Assembly: GCA_020160975.1 (NCBI GenBank)
Contig: JAIUPJ010000001.1
Span: forward strand, 939,551-971,550
Reading direction: 5' to 3'
DNA from: Candidatus Saccharimonadota bacterium
GTDB taxonomy: Bacteria; Patescibacteriota; Saccharimonadia; Saccharimonadales; Saccharimonadaceae
Length of the DNA stretch: 32,000 bases
Shown here piece by piece: positions 786 to 27,602 of the stretch. The position numbers and the translations under genes are program-made. Numbering within the stretch: position 1 is the first letter of the stretch; each line of letters starts with the position of its first letter. The notes beneath the pieces are model-generated. The model did no database searches and was not told where the DNA came from. It was given only the letters and a program-made list of their open reading frames with translations.

Positions 786-3302
786 CTATAGCTGTTTTAG
801 GCGCTCGCAGACAGCTTGCTGGTTCTTTTCGATGAGATCGACGCGGCCCTGAAGGTCGGTGATGCCCATTTCAATCACTCGCTTGAGGCCTATGTTGTGG
901 AGCATTGGTGTGAAGAAATCGGTGTATTCCTGGAGCTGTCGGCGAGTCATCAGGAATTGCCCGGCGTACCGGGGATAATAATCGTAGCTCTTGTCGCTGC
1001 CAAAAGTTTTTTCAATCCACGTCCAATTATCGCGTAGCCATTGCCAGGTACGTTCCCGGGCATGCCGGTTGATCAGCATGTAAATAAACCAATAGGTTGT
1101 GTCTTGGGGGCGAATCAGCTCGGTGTTTGTCAGCATGCCAAGCACCCACTCGATGCTGGCTCTATCCTTGACGCAAGTAACCGCTCCGCGAATATCCTCT
1201 TTGAGATCGGGCGAAACTTCATGCTGGTAGCGCTCCATCAGCGAGGTCAGGAGCTCGGGGTTCTCACCATAGCGCACATCGACGCCAACCAGTAGCCCGC
1301 GCAGCTCGGGGTCAAGTGTCTCTAGTGGTTGGGCGCGAGCGCGGCGAATCGCTTCGGTGATTACCGCTTGATCCTCGCTGTAAATCATCTCGGTAATCAT
1401 GCGAGTACGAAGTTTAATGTCGTTGTCCGATTCGTTGTCTCGCTTGTCCCAGCCGAGCCGCTCGAACTGCGTGCGAGCAAGTTCGCCGACAAAGGTTCGT
1501 AATTTTTTCTCTGCTACCTGGTCGTTCTCAATAAATTTCTTGAGTTCGTTGATTGCCATCACGATCGCATCCCAGACTTGCTCTTCAGATTCGTTTTGAT
1601 ACGCACCGAGGATGTCGATTAATGTCGAAGGATGAACCTCGCCGCCGCGAACTAATAGAATCTGCTCGTTGAGGAGCTGGAGGCGTTGAGCGGTAGTGAG
1701 CTCGCCGCGTTGAAGTCGATCCAGTAGTGCCGCCAGAAGCGCTTCGTCATAATGGGTGATAAAGTGTGCGCTATTGTGTTGGTTGAGGAGAAGCGAAGAG
1801 CCAGTATAAGTAACGACAGCTTCCCTAGTGTCGAGCAGAGTCGGAACTTCGGGGCTTTCGGCCTCGAGCGGAATCGGCCAGAGCTGGTCCCTAGAGTTGT
1901 GAGGCCCGATGAAGAACTGGGATTGGCGAAGCGTCAATTCATTGTTATCGAGATGGGCTGTCACAACCGGGTAGCCTGGTTGTGAAATCCAGGCTTTCAT
2001 GAGGCTGCCAATCGCTTTGCCGCTGGCGGCATCGAGACAATCCCATAGATCTGTTTCGTCGGTGTTTTGGTAGGCAAATCTGGTGAAATATTCTTTCAGC
2101 CCGGCGCGAAAGGCGTCTTCGCCAATGTACTCCATCATCATACGTAATAGTCGTGCGCCTTTGCTGTAAACAATCGCGCCATCAAAAATTGACTGAATCT
2201 CATCCGGATGGTGAACGTCGGTCTGCACTGATTGGACACCGTCAATCGCATCACGGCGAGCTGCCATGACAGCCGAACCGGCATCAAAATCTAGCCAAAC
2301 GTTCCAGTCTGGGTGAAGGGCGTTGGGTGCGATATTCTCCATGATACTGGCAAAACTTTCATTGAGCCAGAGGTTGTTCCACCATTTCATAGTGACGAGA
2401 TTGCCAAACCACTGATGGCTGAGCTCGTGAGCGATGACAGCACTGACGTATTGACGAGCATTGATACTGCTGTGGGTTTTGTCGACGATGAGGGCAGTTT
2501 CGCGGTAGGTGATAAGCCCCCAGTTCTCCATGGCGCCGGCACTAAAGTCTGGTACTGCCACATGATCAGCCTTGGGCAGCGGATACGGTACGCCAAAATA
2601 ATCATCAAAAAACTCGATGATCTTGACAGCTTCTTCGAGGGCAAATTGCAGACTTTTACTTTTCTGAACGGGGGTGGCCCAGACTGTGACCTCGACTCCC
2701 TGCGACGTTGTTGCCGATGCTGACTGGAGCTCGCCCATGACGATAGCGAGTAGATAGGTGCTCATGCGGGGTGTAGTGTCAAAGGTCGTGACCAGCCTAT
2801 CGTCGATAGTGTTTTGGCTTGTCGCCGGCATGTTGCCGAGCACGGCAATGCCGGTTTCTGTCGTGACGGTGACGTCAAAGGTGGCTTTGGCGGCCGGCTC
2901 ATCGATACACGGAAACACTTCGCGCGCATAGTGGCTTTCAAACTGCGTTACAAGCAATTCTTTCTTCTGCCCCTCATGCGTGAAGTAGCACGGGTACAGT
3001 CCATGCAGCGAGTCGGTGATGCTGCCGTGGTAGGTAATAGTGACCGTGTGGTCTCCTGGCGTCAGGCCATCCTGAGAAATCGTCACTTCGTCATCCTGCC
3101 CGTAGCTAAACTGTGCCGGCTGGTCGTCAATAGTAGTCTCTGTAATGCTGAGGTCGTGCGCGTGTACGGCTATCTGGCCATTGACAGACGATCCAGTGAG
3201 GATGACCGTACCTTGGAAGGTTCGCCCTGTGCGGTCGATCACGAGATTTAGATTGTAGTTGGTGGGGATAAATCGATCAAGGAGACGAGAAACTGTTTGC
3301 AT
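786..3302 (-). CDS. pepN: Aminopeptidase N (M1 family zinc metallopeptidase)
   Basis: The 838-aa ORF carries the exopeptidase motif GAMENWG and the zinc site HELSHQWFGNLVTMKWWNNLWLNESFA (HExxH-x18-E). Confidence 0.95.
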   Translation of the reverse strand: MQTVSRLLDRFIPTNYNLNLVIDRTGRTFQGTVILTGSSVNGQIAVHAHDLSITETTIDDQPAQFSYGQDDEVTISQDGLTPGDHTVTITYHGSITDSLHGLYPCYFTHEGQKKELLVTQFESHYAREVFPCIDEPAAKATFDVTVTTETGIAVLGNMPATSQNTIDDRLVTTFDTTPRMSTYLLAIVMGELQSASATTSQGVEVTVWATPVQKSKSLQFALEEAVKIIEFFDDYFGVPYPLPKADHVAVPDFSAGAMENWGLITYRETALIVDKTHSSINARQYVSAVIAHELSHQWFGNLVTMKWWNNLWLNESFASIMENIAPNALHPDWNVWLDFDAGSAVMAARRDAIDGVQSVQTDVHHPDEIQSIFDGAIVYSKGARLLRMMMEYIGEDAFRAGLKEYFTRFAYQNTDETDLWDCLDAASGKAIGSLMKAWISQPGYPVVTAHLDNNELTLRQSQFFIGPHNSRDQLWPIPLEAESPEVPTLLDTREAVVTYTGSSLLLNQHNSAHFITHYDEALLAALLDRLQRGELTTAQRLQLLNEQILLVRGGEVHPSTLIDILGAYQNESEEQVWDAIVMAINELKKFIENDQVAEKKLRTFVGELARTQFERLGWDKRDNESDNDIKLRTRMITEMIYSEDQAVITEAIRRARAQPLETLDPELRGLLVGVDVRYGENPELLTSLMERYQHEVSPDLKEDIRGAVTCVKDRASIEWVLGMLTNTELIRPQDTTYWFIYMLINRHARERTWQWLRDNWTWIEKTFGSDKSYDYYPRYAGQFLMTRRQLQEYTDFFTPMLHNIGLKRVIEMGITDLQGRVDLIEKNQQAVCERLKQL

Positions 3303-3308
3303 ATATGT

Positions 3309-3317
3309 ATTGTATCA
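3309..3317 (-). promoter_or_regulatory. Extended -10 promoter (TGaTACAAT) for pepN, 6 nt from the ATG
   Basis: The minus strand reads TGATACAAT-acatat-ATG. No Shine-Dalgarno sequence lies between them, which implies a leaderless transcript. Confidence 0.45.
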
Positions 3318-3330
3318 GAGAAACACGGGG

Positions 3331-3336
3331 TATACT
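3331..3336 (+). promoter_or_regulatory. -10 box (TATACT) for the nuclease gene, 6 nt from the ATG
   Basis: The plus strand reads TATACT-ggactc-ATG(3343) with no Shine-Dalgarno sequence, which implies a leaderless transcript. Confidence 0.4.
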
Positions 3337-3342
3337 GGACTC

Positions 3343-4077
3343 ATGAAACAACGTCGCCGGCGAGTTCTGGGAGTGATATTGATTGCGATTGCAATCGCGC
3401 TGATGACGGTGAATTCTGGCCAGTCTCAGTTTGGCGCGCCAACAACGTCTACGCGGCCGTCTGGTCCAAACATTACCGATGCGAGCCTGCCGAAAGAGAA
3501 TCCCCCGCAACCAACACCGCTCGCGATCGTCGTGCTGGATACCATCGCCATCAAGGGGCGTGCGCCCAAGACTGATTATCGACGGGTGCAATTTGGTGAC
3601 GGATGGATACTGGTTGGAAACTGCGACACGCGCAACATCATTCTCAACCGCGATCTAACCGATGTAACGCTGACGGGCTGCAAGGTGGCGACAGGCAAGC
3701 TGACCGACCCGTACACAGGTAAGCTGATTGATTTTCAGCGCGGGCCCGAGGGGAGCACGTTGATACAGATTGATCATGTGGTGGCGCTGAGCAACGCTTG
3801 GCAAACCGGTGCGCAGTTGCTGACGCTTCAGCAGCGGATTGCCTTTGCTAATGACCCACTCGAATTGCTGGCGGTTGATGGCAACGCCAATCAAGCAAAG
3901 GGCGATGGTGACGCCGCGACCTGGCTACCGGCAAACAAAGCCTTTCGCTGCCAATACGTCGCACGTCAAATTGCGGTGAAAGCTAAGTATAGTTTGTGGG
4001 TGACACAGGCCGAGAAAGAGGCTATGCAGCGGGTGCTCAGGGAATGTCCGGAGCAGACGGTACCGGGAGTGAGGTAG
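3343..4077 (+). CDS. Secreted DUF1524 / HNH-type endonuclease family protein
   Basis: The start is taken at MKQRRRRVLGVILIAIAIALMTV, which gives a signal or anchor helix. The upstream part of the track ORF would overlap the pepN start. The C-terminal region IDHVVALSNAWQTGAQ...AVDGNANQAKGDGDAATWLP...CQYVARQIAVKAKYSLWVT matches the DUF1524 (GmrSD C-terminal HNH-like) pattern. Confidence 0.85.
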   Translation: MKQRRRRVLGVILIAIAIALMTVNSGQSQFGAPTTSTRPSGPNITDASLPKENPPQPTPLAIVVLDTIAIKGRAPKTDYRRVQFGDGWILVGNCDTRNIILNRDLTDVTLTGCKVATGKLTDPYTGKLIDFQRGPEGSTLIQIDHVVALSNAWQTGAQLLTLQQRIAFANDPLELLAVDGNANQAKGDGDAATWLPANKAFRCQYVARQIAVKAKYSLWVTQAEKEAMQRVLRECPEQTVPGVR

Positions 4078-4225
4078 GGTTGGTCTTAGAGCTTAGAGCA
4101 TAGCTAAACTGCAAAAATAACCCTTGGTTCTAAGTCTTAAGTCGTAAAAAATTGTTTTTCGTCATTCCGGACTTGATCCAAAATTTAAAGATTCTGGTGT
4201 GCTTCTTCTCTAGAAAATCAAATCC

Positions 4226-4785
4226 TTTCTTTTGTCTCATCAAAAGAAACAAAACCGACCACCTTTGGAGTCAAAGGTGGAGAAACCTCTGGGGCGGCTT
4301 CCCTCCGCCGGGAACAGCAACTACGACTTTCTTGGAAGACTGCGGAGTCTTTGTTCAGTGAGCAGGAACAAAGACGAAGTCCTCGTCTTGCCAGGAAAGC
4401 CGTAGTCACCGTGTCTCGGGTCAGTCCAGATGCCCCAGACCCCAGGACGCAGCAGAGCTGCTTATTTCAGCGGCTCTGCCGCAAAATACTGCAGTCACTC
4501 GTGACTGTACACCTAATGGGTCTTGGGAGCTCAAGAACCCAAGAAGACTGAGGATTGTCTTTTGGAGTCATTCACGACATTGTTTCCACTACAAACAATA
4601 GCGATACTGTAGTGGAATGCCCTTTAGGGCAGTATGTCGTGACCAAAAGACAAGCAGAAGGCTTCTTGGCGTGAATGAGATATCCCAATGTCGTGTTTGG
4701 TTCTTTGATCGAAACAAAGAACTGTTTCCCTCGCTTTGCAGCAAAGCGAGTCGCTTTTTGCTTCTTTGGCGAAAGAAAAAGAAGT
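4226..4785. ncRNA. Hairpin-dense non-coding segment, a candidate large structured RNA of unassigned class and uncertain strand
   Basis: At least 12 consecutive stem-loops have 7-10 perfect bp, and a three-way junction spans 4556-4652. There is no credible ORF. Details are in the findings. Confidence 0.3.
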
Positions 4786-4862
4786 GGATTTATTCGGTTC
4801 TTTTGGATAAAGAGCTAGACTTACCCGTTTTGCAAAAAGGAGACGGCATATAAATTTTTAAT

Positions 4863-4934
4863 CCCAAAATGTCAAAACCCCACCCTCACCACACTGGCGG
4901 AGCGGGGCTCGACGCCGAGTGGGTGAGGGTGGGG
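4863..4934 (-). terminator. Very strong hairpin followed by a T-rich tract on the minus strand
   Basis: The 13-bp stem CCCCACCCTCACC (4878-4890) pairs with GGTGAGGGTGGGG (4922-4934). It is extended by 4892-4899 pairing with 4913-4921. On the minus strand it is followed by TTTTGACATTTTGGG. Confidence 0.6.
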
Positions 4935-4938
4935 TGAA

Positions 4939-5226
4939 TCAGAGGGCTGCTTGATACGCGCTGTCGGACGTCTTGATGAACCAAGGCCTCCAAAGCGGTA
5001 GTAGCGGTAGTTTCCTCAAGACAAGTGTCACTGGGTAGTGGCGGCTGTCAGCTGAGCTTGTCCCTACAGATCCCCACATGTGTCTTTGTCTGCGCTTGTA
5101 GATGAAGTGCACAGCAGGGCTCTTCGAGGTTCCTTTTGTGCGTTCATGCCGCTGCACTTGAGTGATCGTGCAGTTGGAGGCGACGACGACGACTTCCATT
5201 GTGCGAGTGATCACAGCATCTCCCAT
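4939..5226 (-). CDS. Hypothetical small basic protein (95 aa), which may instead be part of a non-coding RNA
   Basis: The ORF sits between a consensus-like promoter (5262-5290) and the strong terminator, with its stop 4 nt before the hairpin. It has no Shine-Dalgarno sequence, an odd W/H/R/C-rich composition and no recognisable family. Confidence 0.2.
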   Translation of the reverse strand: MGDAVITRTMEVVVVASNCTITQVQRHERTKGTSKSPAVHFIYKRRQRHMWGSVGTSSADSRHYPVTLVLRKLPLLPLWRPWFIKTSDSAYQAAL

Positions 5227-5261
5227 GATTGAGTGTCCAAAAACCAAAAACTTCCATTTTA

Positions 5262-5290
5262 ATTATGACAAAACTAACTATATTTGTCAA
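5262..5290 (-). promoter_or_regulatory. Sigma70-like promoter TTGACA-17-CATAAT on the minus strand
   Basis: The reverse complement of 5285-5290 is TTGACA and that of 5262-5267 is CATAAT. The spacer is exactly 17 nt. Confidence 0.5.
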
Positions 5291-5310
5291 GTTTTGCGAT
5301 GTTGTAACAG

Positions 5311-8292
<2,982 letters not shown>

Positions 8293-9528: not shown

Positions 9529-9550
9529 TCACTCTTCTGCAAAAAAGAAA

Positions 9551-9574
9551 GCCTCCAGATGGGGGCCTTTTTGC
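9551..9574 (+). terminator. Rho-independent terminator of nusA
   Basis: GCCTCC-agat-GGGGGC forms a stem with one G-U pair on the plus strand and is followed by CTTTTTGC. Confidence 0.6.
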
Positions 9575-9584
9575 TGATATTGAA

Positions 9585-9647
9585 GAGGGCACCCTCTCCA
9601 GAGATTTCTCTCCGGAGGGGTGCCCTCGTGTCGCCAGTGGCGACGAG
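9585..9647 (-). terminator. Two GC-rich hairpins just after the flotillin stop, without a U-tract
   Basis: Region 9585-9627 is a helix of about 20 bp whose single mismatch becomes a G-U pair only on the minus strand. Region 9625-9647 is a 9-bp stem. No clear T-run follows either hairpin. Confidence 0.45.
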
Positions 9648-9652
9648 TTGAG

Positions 9653-11641
9653 TCAGGCCTCGTTGCTCGCTTCCGCAGAGCTCGGGGTCGACTCGGTGGT
9701 GCCTTGCGGCTTGCTGGTCGTGGCCTGAGCCACGAGCAGCTGCAGCAGCTCGAGCAGGTTGCCACCACCACCGCCGCCCGTGATGAGGGTCTGCGGCATG
9801 TACGGCGTCTGGCTCTTGCTCAGTGCATCGACGACGGCCACGGCAGCGGTCTGACCCGCACCGATGGCGTCACGCTGCGCCTGGTATCCAGCCGCCTGGC
9901 CCTCACCGAGGGCTCGGGCGGCGGAGCCGTTGGCTTCACCGATGGCACGGATCTTGGCAGCCTCACCGGCACCGAGCTCCTCCAGGACCTTGCGGTCACC
10001 GGTCGCCTTGGCCACGGCAGCTTCGGCGTTCGCCCTGTTGATCTCGACCGAGACCTGGGCGGCGGCCTTCTGCTGCTGCATGTCAGCCTGACCCTTCATC
10101 GCCTCCATGTCGATGCGCGCGTTCTCGGCGTCCTTCTGGGCGCCGTACGTCTGCTTCTTCTGGTTGGCGATTTCTCGGGTTCTGAGAACCTCGGCGAGGT
10201 CATCGGGAAGTCTGACGTCCTGGATGTAGACGCCGCGCACCTCGACGAAGTACTCGTTGAGGTACTCCTTGATGTACTCGGTGGCCTTCTGCTGAACGCT
10301 GCTGCGGGTCTGGATGAAGTCCGTTGCCGCAAGCTTGGAGAGCGTGTCGCGGAAGTAGTTGCCAACCGCGGCCTGAAGGACCTCGTTCACCAACTTGGCG
10401 ATCGACTCCACCGACCCGATCACCTTGGCGGCGTTCGTGTCGGGGATGTGGATCTGGACTTGCAGTTCGATCGCGAACTCGAACGCGTCGTTCGACTTCG
10501 CAACGATGGTGCTGAGCTCCCTGTCGAGGCCGTGCTCGGACTCGACGTTGTCGGCCCAGTTGAGCTGCAGGATGCTGGTGGGGACGATGATCGGCTGGTA
10601 GATGGTCTGGTTGAGACCCTTCTTGCTGGTGCGGATCACATCCGACCAGATGCCTTCGTGACCGGGTGCCACGATGGATCCGAACTTGTACGTCTCACCG
10701 GACTTGTCCTCAGTCGGCAGGCCGACGTACGCCTTGATGACCGCGACCTGGCCCTGCTCGACCACCAGCATGGGCTGGAGGTCGACCTTGAACAGGAAGG
10801 GGTTGATGGCGTAGTCACCCGAACGCAGCACGTCATGCTGAAGGCCTCGGCGGCCTCCCGCATCCAGGAACGCCTGGGCGTCCTGGTAGTTGTTGTGCAG
10901 TGCGTTGTGGTCGCCGAGCACCGTCTGGATGACCTCATTCGAGGAAGCGTTGGACGCCTCCAACGAGCGGATGTCATCGAAGCTACCGATGCGGCCGGCA
11001 ATCGTTCCCGGCTCGAGCGGCGGACCGTCGAGCGCGGTGAGGATGCCAACCTGGTCGGTGGGGATGGTGACGTAGTGCAGGTCCTTGCTCTGTGCGAGCT
11101 GAACCATCTGCTCGGCGTCACGGTTGACGGGTCGCCCATAGGTACCGTTGACCGTCACCACGATGAAGGCATCGGGGTGGATGGTGTAGGTACCCGGGGT
11201 GAGCACGTGACGCTGGACGCCCTGCTGGCCACCGTTGTCGACGAAGGACTTGACGTCCTGAAAGTTGCCGTACTCGGGCTTGTAGGCCGCGCTCGTCGCT
11301 CCCGTCGGAATCGGTGCTCCCACCTGGGAGATGACGATGCCGAAGGTCTTGTCCGGGATGCTGATGATCGGCACCTTGCGGTTGCTGAACATCGGCCACA
11401 GACGAAGGTGAGGGCCGGTCGCGAGGGCACCTGGCTGGATGCCGTTCTCGCCGTTGAGCGCGATGAAGCCGTTGTTTTCGAGCGACTTCCCGCCGAAGTT
11501 CTTCGTGAGAAAGGCGTTGTAGCCCTCACGTACGAACATGAAGCTCTTCGCGAAGACGAACAGGACGATGAGAACGACCAGTCCGATCACGATGAGCATC
11601 GGTGAGATGCTGATACCAAAGGGCACGAGAGTTCCTTTCAC
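9653..11641 (-). CDS. SPFH (band 7) / flotillin family membrane protein
   Basis: The 662-aa ORF starts at GTG. It has an N-terminal TM helix (MLIVIGLVVLIVLFVFA), an SPFH-type core and a C-terminal Ala/Glu/Gln-rich coiled coil (AQKDAENARIDMEAMKGQADMQQQKAAAQV...AEAAVAKA) typical of flotillins. The gene is about 65-68% GC. Confidence 0.85.
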   Translation of the reverse strand: MKGTLVPFGISISPMLIVIGLVVLIVLFVFAKSFMFVREGYNAFLTKNFGGKSLENNGFIALNGENGIQPGALATGPHLRLWPMFSNRKVPIISIPDKTFGIVISQVGAPIPTGATSAAYKPEYGNFQDVKSFVDNGGQQGVQRHVLTPGTYTIHPDAFIVVTVNGTYGRPVNRDAEQMVQLAQSKDLHYVTIPTDQVGILTALDGPPLEPGTIAGRIGSFDDIRSLEASNASSNEVIQTVLGDHNALHNNYQDAQAFLDAGGRRGLQHDVLRSGDYAINPFLFKVDLQPMLVVEQGQVAVIKAYVGLPTEDKSGETYKFGSIVAPGHEGIWSDVIRTSKKGLNQTIYQPIIVPTSILQLNWADNVESEHGLDRELSTIVAKSNDAFEFAIELQVQIHIPDTNAAKVIGSVESIAKLVNEVLQAAVGNYFRDTLSKLAATDFIQTRSSVQQKATEYIKEYLNEYFVEVRGVYIQDVRLPDDLAEVLRTREIANQKKQTYGAQKDAENARIDMEAMKGQADMQQQKAAAQVSVEINRANAEAAVAKATGDRKVLEELGAGEAAKIRAIGEANGSAARALGEGQAAGYQAQRDAIGAGQTAAVAVVDALSKSQTPYMPQTLITGGGGGGNLLELLQLLVAQATTSKPQGTTESTPSSAEASNEA

Positions 11642-27517: not shown

Positions 27518-27602
27518 GCGGATGTGGTGGAATTGGTAGACACGCATGCCTTAGGAGCATGTGCCTCACGGCGTGAAGGTTCAAGTCCTTTCATCCGCAC
27601 CA
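27518..27602 (+). tRNA. tRNA-Leu (anticodon UAG), class II with a long variable arm and encoded CCA
   Basis: The acceptor stem pairs GCGGATG with CATCCGC and is followed by ACCA. The D-loop is GGAATTGGTAGA. The anticodon stem CATGC/GCATG carries the loop CTTAGGA. A long variable arm is present, and the T-arm is GAAGGTTCAAGTCCTTC. Confidence 0.95.

Follow-up and report, generated by a model that had tools for sequence, protein, structure and literature searches.

The gap described here lies in a 32-kb window, the whole stretch of DNA that was analysed, between an ORF for a GmrSD_C nuclease, which ends with a stop codon at 4077 on the plus strand, and a Vut_1/YhhQ ORF that is open from 5311 and has its likelier start at the ATG at 5332. 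The first-pass annotation had reported 1.2 kb of gene-free sequence at this place and the gap is real: its bounds are 4077 and 5311-5332, and gene callers annotated 0 genes in it in two independent assemblies of identical sequence. In Candidatus Saccharimonas, the gap is occupied by an island specific to the lineage and prone to recombination, which consists of two modules (A and B), a predicted minus-strand terminator and a promoter-to-terminator slot (Table 1). The island is missing from most related species, and in most relatives the gap measures 23-270 nt. The locus is a recombination hot spot with allele swapping, which already breaks short-read assemblies.

Table 1. Features of the gap between the nuclease gene and yhhQ, in window coordinates.
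Feature	Position	Strand	Description
Linker	4078-4206		AT-rich, without structure, 3' of the nuclease stop codon; GC 0.38-0.46
Module A, 'rod plus tail'	4207-4443	- (proposed sense)	Defined by its fold, a homologue in L030 and a terminator-like tail
Module A tail	within 4207-4443	-	H2 4259-4267/4272-4280, T tract 4258-4245, H1 4226-4234/4241-4249, then GGATTTGATT
Module A rod	4288-4443	-	Base CTGGGGC/GCCCCAG, apical hairpin 4347-4356/4366-4375
Shared junction motif GCCCCAGACCCC	4433-4443		5' base of both modules
Module B, 'rod plus tail'	4441-4800	+ (proposed sense)	Inverted relative to module A
Module B 5' domain	4441-4527	+	Closing helix 4441-4455/4513-4527; hairpins 4449-4462/4469-4482 and 4491-4498/4501-4508 (consensus-fold helices 1-3)
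Module B rod with three-way junction	4528-4667	+	Helices 4537-4549/4663-4676, 4555-4565/4643-4653, 4572-4580/4635-4643
Module B rod hairpins	4584-4593/4608-4617, 4619-4622/4627-4630	+	Inside the three-way junction
Module B conserved block 1	4668-4722	+	GGCGTGAATGAGATATCCCAATGTCGTGTTTG and hairpin 4700-4707/4715-4722
Module B terminator-like hairpin	4723-4759	+	Stem 4730-4738/4742-4750, then TCGCTTTTTG
Module B conserved block 2	4760-4800	+	Hairpin 4760-4767/4778-4785 (GCTTCTTT..AAAGAAGT), then GGATTTATT
Spacer	4801-4863		Two weaker hairpins at about 4797-4816 and 4825-4847
Predicted intrinsic terminator of the slot unit	4864-4935	-	14-bp perfect outer stem 4877-4890/4922-4935, inner helix, then TTTTGACATTTTGGG
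Slot body	4936-5261	-	About 320 nt; 107-codon open frame 5247-4939, without Shine-Dalgarno sequence
Back-to-back promoters	5262-5322		Predicted by consensus scoring; both conserved in relatives
Minus-strand promoter TTGACA-17-(TG)TCATAAT	5290-5262	-	11/12
yhhQ promoter TTGCGA-17-TATACT	5294-5322	+	9/12

Structure is concentrated in the middle of the gap. Between 4200 and 4860, the plus strand folds at -263.3 kcal/mol, against -190.2 +/- 7.5 in shuffled sequences (z -9.7), and the minus strand at -264.1 kcal/mol (z -10.9), so that the earlier description of this region as saturated with hairpins was accurate. When 200-nt windows were slid across all 32 kb, 4201-4800 and 4801-5000 formed the sole long run with z-scores of -3.8 to -6.6; folding was ordinary at 4001-4200 (z +1.25) and at 4901-5400, within a range of +1.3 to -1.9. 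Structure is thus confined to about 4200-4860 and the hairpin 4877-4935, and does not extend over the whole 1.2 kb. The stems listed in the first-pass annotation were found, by sequence reading or an inverted-repeat scan, in every case checked, that is, for all but 4371-4377/4383-4389 and 4520-4527/4538-4548. They include 4226-4234/4241-4249, 4259-4267/4272-4280, 4293-4297/4305-4309, 4347-4356/4366-4375, 4449-4462/4469-4482, 4584-4593/4608-4617 and 4730-4739/4741-4750. The small hairpin placed at 4618-4623/4626-4631 exists too, with better boundaries at 4619-4622/4627-4630.

Many of these hairpins resemble each other. The CTTTG...CAAAG theme noticed earlier is enriched over expectation: AAAGAA/TTCTTT occurs 8 times against 0.45 expected, and CTTTG-N(1-14)-CAAAG has 3 copies in the region and a single one in the remaining 31 kb, against an expectation of 0.46 in the window as a whole. 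Arms of the TCTTTG/CAAAGA type are common to at least 8 hairpins. The short hairpins are perfect Watson-Crick palindromes, and pairs that are predicted on both strands are necessarily all Watson-Crick, which is why both strands fold equally well. The sense strand had been called ambiguous, and it is so by energy: the difference between strands stays within the normal spread of the window for both module A (+12 kcal/mol; z 1.9 raw and 1.2 after correction for G+T content) and module B (-13.4 kcal/mol; z -0.1), neither value being significant. Deducing the sense strand from folding energy or G-U counts looked promising at first and was abandoned, the same differences being found window-wide and tracking G+T content.

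The core consists of two related modules in opposite orientation. The reverse complement of A aligns with B at a score of 30, against 17.6 +/- 2.3 and a maximum of 25 in shuffles, and an alignment of five tail sequences gives a polar tail common to both modules: a hairpin, GTCG(C/G)TTTT and a second hairpin. Conserved block 2 of module B is accordingly paralogous to H1 and the end of the module A tail. The junction motif GCCCCAGACCCC is present as a single copy that serves A and B in the window, and as two inverted copies, at 2769 and 3710, in the related species L030. Module A has its homologue there at 3710-3939, inverted and 79% identical, and L030 additionally carries a third, diverged copy. 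An HMM of the tail matched at the locus only, and a regular-expression search for the junction motif also gave nothing outside it, in 299 kb that include the full window and flanks of about 10 kb from three further carriers; the scanned sequence leaves aside the remaining 94-97% of each carrier genome. It follows that the family is not high-copy and dispersed in the sampled sequence.

This architecture bears on the proposal, made in the first-pass annotation, that 4078-5310 in its entirety forms one large structured RNA belonging to a novel class. A long ORF-free stretch, extreme folding energy and the lack of an Rfam match would fit it. Yet the structured part spans only about 600 nt, with 4001-4200 and 4901-5400 unstructured, and a core of inverted paralogues with outward terminator-like tails contradicts one continuous molecule. 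In L030 the modules lie apart, in another order and orientation. The right third (4864-5310) is an unrelated unit with a minus-strand terminator, a variable slot and back-to-back promoters; it has its own predicted minus-strand promoter and terminator, and is replaced by protein genes in strains of the same species. We thus consider a single RNA highly improbable.

The slot is, as predicted from its sequence, a minus-strand promoter-to-terminator unit running from 5290 to 4864, whose small genes vary from strain to strain. On the minus strand, the hairpin 4877-4935 and the TTTTGACATTTTG that comes after it fit an intrinsic terminator. The left half of the hairpin, CACCACACTGGCGGAGCGGGGCTC, is conserved between lineages, with 91-92% identity in L001 and L034, in which no other part of the gap can be aligned, and in L046/L047 the swap junction lies at the hairpin apex. 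Elsewhere the slot is occupied by unrelated small genes of 124 aa (L046/L047), 100 aa (L030) and 61 aa (L034), none of which has a Pfam or PADLOC match. In the window, the slot body is not structured (z -2.65, terminator included) and holds the 107-codon frame, which no gene caller reports. Compared with L038, this frame has no indels, 81% nucleotide identity, 36 mismatches at third positions against 22 and 22 at the others, and an amino-acid identity of roughly three quarters, estimated by eye. Beyond the slot, the spacer 4801-4863 is identical among strains of the same species and poorly conserved in L030. At the other end of the gap, the linker contains a CTTAGAG micro-repeat (x2.7, found with TRF) at 4085-4103.

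Could the region be the remnant of a decayed protein-coding gene? The several ORFs of 50-100 aa, together with the 107-codon frame that is open in two lineages, would suit such an origin, which we regard as barely credible: six-frame translation of 4078-5310 gave no relative at E <= 0.01 among 5.8 billion proteins, and neither the folding z-scores nor the compensatory changes described below are expected of a pseudogene. The three longest ORFs of the gap (102, 78 and 69 aa) were negative in Pfam and NCBIfam scans. With the negative six-frame search, the absence of called genes and small ORFs that are broken in relatives, the structured region is non-coding, as had been claimed. The same annotation had recognized no RNA class in it, and Rfam agrees, with no family at gathering score and only noise at E <= 10. 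The only match to Rfam 15 at gathering score in the window was a tRNA at 27518-27599, outside the gap; the families that did not match include ROOL, GOLLD, OLE, raiA, HEARO, 6S, RNase P, tmRNA, SRP, preQ1 riboswitches and ribozymes. At E <= 10 the region gave miRNA and snoRNA noise, its homologue in L030 gave different noise with no family in common, and nine syntenic loci had no Rfam matches.

Searches further afield were negative as well: blastn of phage and plasmid collections in 'distant' mode gave no match, nor did three conserved-block patterns in viral contigs, and a metagenome search with YhhQ returned 4 loci, none closer than the relatives already compared. Searches of the literature on Saccharibacteria non-coding RNAs or on RAYTs (REP-associated tyrosine transposases) in Patescibacteria found nothing relevant. 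Several specific identities were rejected. A type I toxin-antitoxin system does not fit, since the ORF at 4675-4818 stops after 22 codons in L030, a 1-nt deletion shifts its frame in L046, and there is no other conserved small ORF. An oriC or dif site would go with a turn in GC skew, which is absent, and no string resembling a DnaA box was seen by eye. Integron attC sites were dismissed because the hairpin bases lack R'/R'' core sites (by eye), and a retron or DGR because the scanned ORFs nearest to the gap have no reverse transcriptase domain in Pfam. The rod has no central bubble and does not match the 6S RNA model. As for a single-strand origin of a rolling-circle plasmid, the TAGCGA of the 4594-4607 loop, which we take to resemble a CS-6 box, does not occur in the allele of L030.

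The helices are kept by compensatory change. The consensus of module B has 109 pairs, with 96.3% of cells paired, against 37-47% when partners are slid, and 24 pairs are changed on both sides, against 1-7 in the slid controls, values that 0/500 shuffles reach; these figures come from 4 sequences with 3 alleles in two species-level lineages, and thus from few independent events. Of the pairs changed on both sides, 21 are still paired in pairwise tests, against 9 broken with the window as reference or 3 broken with L030. Comparison with relatives, which the first-pass annotation had proposed as a check, thus gave compensatory changes beyond slid and shuffled controls, in only three alleles. In the rod, helices 6-10 are 92-100% paired and 19/46 of their pairs have changes on both sides, whereas the 5' domain, 69% identical to L030, shows weak covariation, with 3 pairs changed on both sides. 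The three-way junction that had been described is present and conserved with compensatory changes in relatives, its branched architecture (three helices and two hairpins) being retained in three alleles that are 54-77% identical. In module A, on the proposed sense strand, 11/71 consensus pairs are changed on both sides. Maintenance of palindromes at the DNA level would give an identical signal.

Conservation is uneven along the modules. Between the window and L030, the blocks 4668-4722 and 4751-4785 are 96% and 94% identical (53/55, or 96.4%, for block 1; 33/35 for 4751-4785), against 72%, 76% and 81% for the coding sequences of the nuclease, yhhQ and tgt. The bases of the rods are 82-90% identical and their interiors 49-54%, with pairing kept; module A has a tail that is 86% identical and a rod interior at 49%. 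In module B, a variable 'allele patch' covers 4504-4675, the rod being 54% identical to that of L030 and 63% to that of L046, a strain of the same species. Three rod alleles were found (window/L047/L052, L046/L051 and L030), two of which occur within one species. The hairpin 4730-4750 is swapped wholesale between lineages while its T tract is retained, and three unrelated perfect palindromes occupy the site: CTCGCTTTG/CAAAGCGAG in the window, CTTCCTTTA/TAAAGGAAG in L030 and ACTTTCTTT/AAAGAAAGT in L021. Nine Logan contigs from different runs begin at the equivalent of window positions 4750-4755, and L049, from a further run, begins at 4750. Within block 1, the segment 4686-4695 (CAATGTCGTG), one arm of a 10-bp repeat found by the inverted-repeat scan, can form an alternative helix with 4573-4582 that replaces pairing with 4635-4643. 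From the alignment, this helix survives in the divergent alleles of L030 and L046 by a single U-G wobble, a pair that only the plus strand allows, which is an observation in favour of structured RNA.

Both modules end in putative terminators. A consensus scan predicts three sites (plus strand, 4730-4750; minus strand, 4280-4259; homologues in L030), in module tails whose T tract begins 4 nt past the stem, which makes them less canonical. H2 and its T tract are terminator-like on the minus strand in the window and on the plus strand in L030. These predictions raise the question of whether the hairpins act purely in cis, as back-stop terminators or insulators between convergent units or as a structured 3' UTR of the nuclease mRNA, with no function as molecules. 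The scan found no plus-strand terminator-like site in the linker, nor any from the nuclease stop codon to 4730-4759, so nuclease transcripts would traverse A and B and stop at the tail of B; conversely, the tail of A would halt minus-strand read-through ahead of the nuclease gene. The relocated copy of A in L030 likewise ends in a predicted terminator, about 75 nt before the yhhQ promoter. However, a stem and a U tract suffice for a terminator, and purely local action leaves unexplained the compensated rods of 140-150 nt, the three-way junction and the blocks that are more conserved than neighbouring genes. Most relatives manage with a gap of 23-270 nt, and L030 has a strong terminator directly after the nuclease gene and yet retains module B. 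A role in cis only is therefore doubtful, and we give it little weight.

Our best reading, held tentatively and with somewhat less than even confidence, is that the modules represent a previously undescribed family of structured RNAs, capped by terminators and narrow in distribution. The island would be bordered by two transcription units that converge on it, the plus-strand nuclease gene and the minus-strand variable slot. Module A would be read on the minus strand, with an RNA that begins at about 4443-4480 and ends at about 4245, and module B on the plus strand, with an RNA that begins at about 4441-4495 and ends at about 4757. Both molecules would form a long irregular helix, capped in module B by the three-way junction, and would be released at the tail by a perfect hairpin and a U tract, beyond which lies another conserved hairpin. 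The rods may serve as scaffolds: their sequence can vary, and is exchanged among lineages, provided that the pairing persists. As the tail and linker blocks are almost invariant, they are probably the surfaces by which a protein or another nucleic acid recognises the RNA. Transcription of the modules, their sense strand and their binding partners are inferred.

One may go further and imagine a 'rod-and-tail' class of RNAs in Saccharibacteria, with invariant tails bound by a dedicated partner and rods acting as exchanged specificity alleles. Two rod alleles in one species and three unrelated alleles at 4730-4750 are what is expected of a system of recognition, immunity or incompatibility at the RNA level, and not of a housekeeping RNA. 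We regard this extension as speculative and rather unlikely.

Several observations weigh against structured RNAs as the explanation. No canonical sigma-70-type promoter was found upstream of module A or B in the window or in L030, though nearby genes score 9-12/12; weak candidates around the conserved GCAAAATA (4481-4488) reach at most 6-8/12 and are not convincing. The energy asymmetry between strands is not significant and both strands fold equally well. At least 8 hairpins with shared TCTTTG/CAAAGA arms fit duplicated palindromic DNA better than independent RNA helices. Finally, module A has another place and the opposite orientation in L030, and a RAYT lies within the H2 homologue of a sister lineage.

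The same observations favour another possible explanation, which we rate somewhat below terminator-capped RNAs: the modules may be non-autonomous palindromic DNA elements of the REP/REPIN, BOX or MITE kind. Their hairpins would be single-stranded DNA substrates that duplicate, invert and exchange locally, perhaps through a Y1 (RAYT/IS200-like) transposase; they would be kept by the needs of that substrate or by templated correction from arm to arm, and terminator activity would be a by-product or a co-option. This rival is a close one because a sister lineage carries a RAYT at the exact position of the modules. In L034/L035, a 205-aa protein encoded between the nuclease gene and the conserved terminator matches the REP-associated tyrosine transposase model NF047646 (E 1.5e-11) and Pfam Y1_Tnp (28 bits, cut-off 23), and has HUH (NHFHL) and YIHLNP motifs. 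Perfect palindromes in inverted orientation, GCTATCGGGT-NNN-ACCCGATAGC, stand on both sides of its gene, the left one nested in the H2 homologue (CACCCTTTG...CAAAGGGTG, with ACAAAACC before it), and the contig of L038 breaks at a palindrome of the same type. The conserved ends and the variable, still-pairing interior of the modules are as described for REPIN spacers (PMC3337134). The relocated and inverted module A of L030 and the third copy there, the perfect palindromes replaced wholesale at two sites, and the position of the island between convergent genes, absent from most related species, point the same way.

Other evidence stands against mobile palindromes. The tail and the junction motif have no copy outside the locus in the 299 kb, so the many dispersed copies typical of REPINs were not seen there, the whole window included. 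By tblastn, no RAYT was found in the window or at any locus carrying modules, and the palindromes that flank the RAYT show no sequence relationship with the rods, whose ends, as read from the sequence, are not inverted copies of one short palindrome. Terminal inverted repeats and target-site duplications, as would mark a MITE, were not seen at the junctions of the relocated module A in L030 when read against the uninterrupted promoter pair of the window and L034. A conserved three-way junction and unpaired blocks conserved at 94-96% also exceed a simple REP doublet.

The genomes of Saccharibacteria, about 1 Mb in size, contain very little non-coding DNA and, to our knowledge, almost nothing is known of their RNAs and repeat elements. 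Here, about 600 nt that do not encode protein are clearly maintained, with matched changes in helices and two blocks whose conservation exceeds that of the adjacent genes. Should the modules be RNAs, they make up a new family of structured RNA in which invariant tails are combined, unusually, with swappable rods. If they are REPIN-like, they would be, with the RAYT of the sister lineage, the first described association of a palindromic repeat and a transposase in the phylum, as far as our literature searches show. Under either reading, annotating this locus as an empty intergenic region or as hypothetical small ORFs is inappropriate.

Among known systems, REPINs have conserved ends, an interior that is variable yet pairing, and extragenic hairpins (Bertels and Rainey; PMC3116915, PMC3337134); some are flanked by A/T runs that suggest use as attenuators, and they are doublets of one short palindrome, about 90 nt long, with tens to hundreds of dispersed copies and a RAYT in the same genome (PMC3116915, PMC3337134). 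The modules are alike in being extragenic and hairpin-forming, with conserved ends and a pairing, variable interior, and a RAYT with inverted palindromes lies at the locus in the sister lineage; they differ in their length of 240-360 nt, the three-way junction of one of them, their 2-3 copies at one locus and the lack of a RAYT in the carrier sequence examined. Large ornate RNAs such as ROOL, GOLLD, OLE, raiA and HEARO/omega RNA offer another comparison, being multi-helix non-coding molecules of several hundred nt with conserved junctions, variable stems and functions that are not known or were recently found. The modules share these traits, but have no covariance-model match at E <= 10 and are not one RNA; the island is also much narrower in distribution and has no associated protein gene.

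BIME clusters of E. coli, BOX elements of Streptococcus pneumoniae and Correia elements of Neisseria combine conserved end pieces, variable middles and strong hairpins. Located at gene 3' ends or in the space separating convergent genes, they can be terminators or RNA stabilizers, and are defined as families by many near-identical dispersed copies. The modules have the conserved ends, the variable middle and the hairpins, whereas many dispersed copies were unseen in the 299 kb. The type I toxin-antitoxin repeats LDR and SIB/QUAD of E. coli are lineage-specific, locally repeated, structured intergenic modules that were first noticed as repeats; unlike them, the modules lack a conserved small hydrophobic ORF. 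Finally, terminator-capped small RNAs, among them divergent or duplicated pairs of sRNA genes and sRNAs derived from 3' UTRs, end in a hairpin and a U tract. The modules are unusual in their lengths (about 240 and 320-360 nt) and rod-like folds and have no recognised promoter, but like these RNAs they end in a hairpin and a U tract, stand side by side as paralogues and have conserved 3' parts.

The first-pass annotation had read the gap between the GmrSD_C nuclease gene and yhhQ (4078-5310) as a candidate for one large structured RNA of no known class. The gap does hold a non-coding structure that is real and maintained and has no counterpart in current RNA libraries; it is not one large RNA, however, but is modular and lies within a hypervariable island. 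It comprises two units, modules A and B, and the right third of the gap is a separate unit. Between 4200 and 4860, the plus strand folds with an energy of -263.3 kcal/mol, the value for shuffled sequences being -190.2 +/- 7.5 (z -9.7); for the minus strand the energy is -264.1 kcal/mol (z -10.9). When all of the window was scanned with a sliding 200-nt frame, this excess was limited to ~4200-4800 and the hairpin at 4877-4935, with ordinary folding at 4001-4200 and 4901-5400; the only other strongly structured spots were a tRNA and the stretch after nusA. The latter (9529-9700, z -5.5) ranks second in the window and includes, at ~9546-9573, a terminator-like hairpin with a T tract, followed by a ~43-nt hairpin, GAGGGCACCCTCTCCAGAGATTTCTCTCCGGAGGGGTGCCCTC; it has no Rfam match. 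Every stem of the earlier list that we checked, by sequence or repeat scan, is present, the CTTTG/CAAAG theme is a genuine enrichment, and the three-way junction drawn there was found in the rod of module B. There are no tandem repeats of note.

No Rfam 15 model matches the gap at gathering score, and the sole such match in the window is a tRNA outside it. At E <= 10 the gap region gave only eukaryotic miRNA and snoRNA noise; in L030, which represents a second species-level lineage, the homologous stretch gave noise again, different from that of the window. None of 5.8 billion proteins matched the six-frame translation of 4078-5310 at E <= 0.01. The gap's three longest ORFs matched neither Pfam nor NCBIfam; a decayed protein gene is therefore ruled out. 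Searches of phages, plasmids and viral contigs found no match.

The gap is lineage-specific. ENA and JGI assemblies contain exact copies of 3200-6099, in which the gap carries no gene calls. Among one-genome-per-species contigs, the nearest YhhQ relatives all belong to Candidatus Saccharibacteria/Saccharimonas MAGs (62-79% amino acid identity). Nine related species keep the order peptidase, nuclease, yhhQ and tgt, with just 23-420 nt, or one small gene, between nuclease and yhhQ, and in the nearest species representative only 58 nt of the gap (4865-4922) can be aligned, at 91%. Closer relatives were found via contigs whose YhhQ or nuclease protein shares 80-98% identity with that of the window. 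Four are of the same species and match 4000-4934 at 97.4-97.6% (L047, L052) or 91.6-92.0% (L046, L051). In L030 the coding sequences are more distant (nuclease 72%, yhhQ 76%, tgt 81%); the homologue of 4433-4935 has the same orientation (73%), and that of 4206-4443 is inverted and relocated beside yhhQ (79%). A short repeat just 3' of the nuclease stop (CTTAGAG / GAGCTTAGA, 4085-4103) recurs in L001, from a related species (5756-5785), though the rest of its gap is unalignable. At the other border, the conserved yhhQ promoter (TTGCGA-17-TATACT, in the 5294-5334 region) overlaps the ATG at 5311 previously taken as start, and another ATG, at 5332, lies 9 nt past the -10 element, a layout shared by L001 and a further locus, L007; YhhQ therefore probably has 224 aa and a leaderless or near-leaderless mRNA.

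In the window, modules A and B stand back to back with their tails facing outwards. Their 3' tails are paralogous: the reverse complement of the A tail aligns to the B tail with a score of 30 (shuffles 17.6 +/- 2.3, maximum 25). Five tail sequences were aligned. An HMM of the tail matched two copies at each locus of the window type, three in L030 and no further copy in the 299 kb searched, where the junction motif GGGGYCTGGGG is also confined to the island locus. The third L030 copy, a diverged A-type unit (2572-2780), again folds as a 135-nt rod. For module B we aligned four sequences representing three alleles. Their consensus comprises 14 helices with 109 pairs; the share of paired cells is 96.3% (37-47% with slid partners), and both sides changed in 24 pairs, against 1-7 in slid controls, values matched by 0 of 500 shuffles. 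The bulk of this signal comes from helices 6-10, those of the rod and its three-way junction. When the structure is taken from a single sequence only, 21 doubly changed pairs still pair, against 9 or 3 that are broken. In module A, 11 of 71 pairs are doubly changed. The 5' strand (4573-4582) of one helix of the three-way junction can pair with either downstream copy of ATGTCGTG: the first (4635-4643) covaries with it, and the second (4686-4695) is invariant, within the most conserved block. Such alternative pairing could be a conformational switch.

Energy differences between strands initially pointed to A being minus and B plus, but they were not counted, because a whole-window control found them ordinary and following G+T content. 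What remains gives limited support to this assignment: the polarity of the tails (hairpin, then T tract) is conserved and terminator-like on A minus and B plus in both species, and the alternative helix 4573-4582/4686-4695 is kept in divergent alleles solely via plus-strand U-G wobble. Since no canonical promoter lies upstream of either module in either species, while the promoters of nearby genes agree with the consensus in 9-12 of 12 positions, we only infer that the modules are transcribed. Our first-ranked reading, held tentatively, is a new family of terminator-capped structured RNAs. That the modules act purely in cis, as a terminator buffer, ranks third and seems improbable.

Conservation is uneven. 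Between the two species, rod interiors are 49-54% identical, the module A tail 86%, and the blocks 4668-4722 and 4751-4785 reach 96% and 94%, far above flanking coding sequences. The surrounding DNA is almost the same within the species, yet the patch 4504-4675 occurs as two alleles of 63% identity, the second being nearer to that of L030 (77%). At the hairpin 4730-4750, three unrelated alleles, each a perfect palindrome, occupy one site, with the downstream T tract kept, and the rod apex of module A is likewise replaced in L030. In many independent runs, short-read contigs break off at a few fixed points of the island, chiefly just past the replaceable hairpin 4730-4750, a pattern suggesting that single samples hold several coexisting alleles. 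The island sits at a recombination breakpoint, because two relatives are mosaic: L046 shares 98.5% identity with the window in its nuclease gene and only 83.6% in tgt, and L040, whose nuclease has 97% amino acid identity to that of the window, is 100% identical to L030 over the last 78 nt of the gene and 88 nt downstream (L040 3114-3279).

The right third is a slot between two conserved elements, a minus-strand promoter and half of a terminator, with contents unrelated between strains; the exchange junction is the apex of the terminator hairpin. The ~320 nt between promoter and terminator have no notable structure. In the window they hold an ambiguous 107-codon frame, lacking a Shine-Dalgarno sequence and a gene call, which is also open in the related contig L038 (81% nucleotide identity, a mild third-position excess of changes and, by eye only, roughly three quarters amino acid identity). 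Elsewhere the slot is filled by unrelated genes of 124 aa (L046, L047), 100 aa (L030) and 61 aa (L034, of a sister lineage), none with a family match; of these, at least the ones in L030 and L034 come with Shine-Dalgarno-like sequences.

Coordinates of features in the window and in related contigs (L-numbers)
Feature	Position	Strand	Remarks
M1 aminopeptidase	786-3302	minus	flanking gene
GmrSD_C/HNH nuclease	3259-4077	plus	flanking gene
Module A	4207-4443	minus (proposed)	~150-nt rod; then, on the minus strand, hairpin H2, T tract, hairpin H1
Module B	4441-4800	plus (proposed)	5' domain; 140-nt rod capped by three-way junction; conserved linker with hairpin; tail
Module B tail			perfect hairpin, then TCGCTTTTTG, then second conserved hairpin
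Slot terminator (predicted from sequence)	4877-4935	minus	hairpin, then TTTTGACATTTTG
Slot promoter	5290-5262	minus	near-consensus; back to back with yhhQ promoter
yhhQ promoter	5294-5322	plus
Vut_1/YhhQ queuosine-precursor transporter	5311-6006	plus	flanking gene
tgt, queA, nusA			also among flanking genes
Slot extents	4864-5290		L046 3046-3500; L047 3046-3500; L030 3205-3660; L034 1170-1510
Contig starts	4490; 4700; 4750; 4755; 4857; 5081; 5299-5300		L048; L021; L028/L049; L020, L023-L027/L029; L050; L013; L022/L015
RAYT-like Y1 transposase gene	L034 437-1054
RAYT gene and flanking palindromes	L034 383-1130; L035 103-850

In the sister lineage (L034, L035), a 205-aa protein is encoded between the nuclease and the conserved terminator. 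It matches Pfam Y1_Tnp above cut-off and, at E 1.5e-11, the REP-associated tyrosine transposases (RAYT), the latter match being below NCBI's cut-off; it also has the HUH and Y motifs. On both sides of its gene lie perfect palindromes in inverted orientation, GCTATCGGGT-CGT/ACG-ACCCGATAGC; the left one is nested in a longer 18-bp palindrome homologous, flanks included, to H2 of the window, a third, partial copy lies at 1114-1130 of L034, and L038 begins (position 20) within such a palindrome. In L030, the relocated module A has at its apex (3780-3800) the palindrome GATAGC-TTTA-GCTATC, which shares the 6-7-mers GCTATCG/GATAGC with the palindromes flanking the L034 gene, perhaps by chance. A RAYT-like gene with palindromes at the same place speaks for modules that are REPIN/BOX-like palindromic DNA, a reading that we rank a close second and consider possible, if somewhat doubtful; it is compatible with the structured RNAs that we prefer. 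REPIN/REP-RAYT systems are defined by a high copy number and by a RAYT encoded in the genome that carries the repeats; the sequence examined shows neither trait, whereas the rods do resemble the published description of REPINs, with conserved ends and a variable but pairing interior (PMC3337134).
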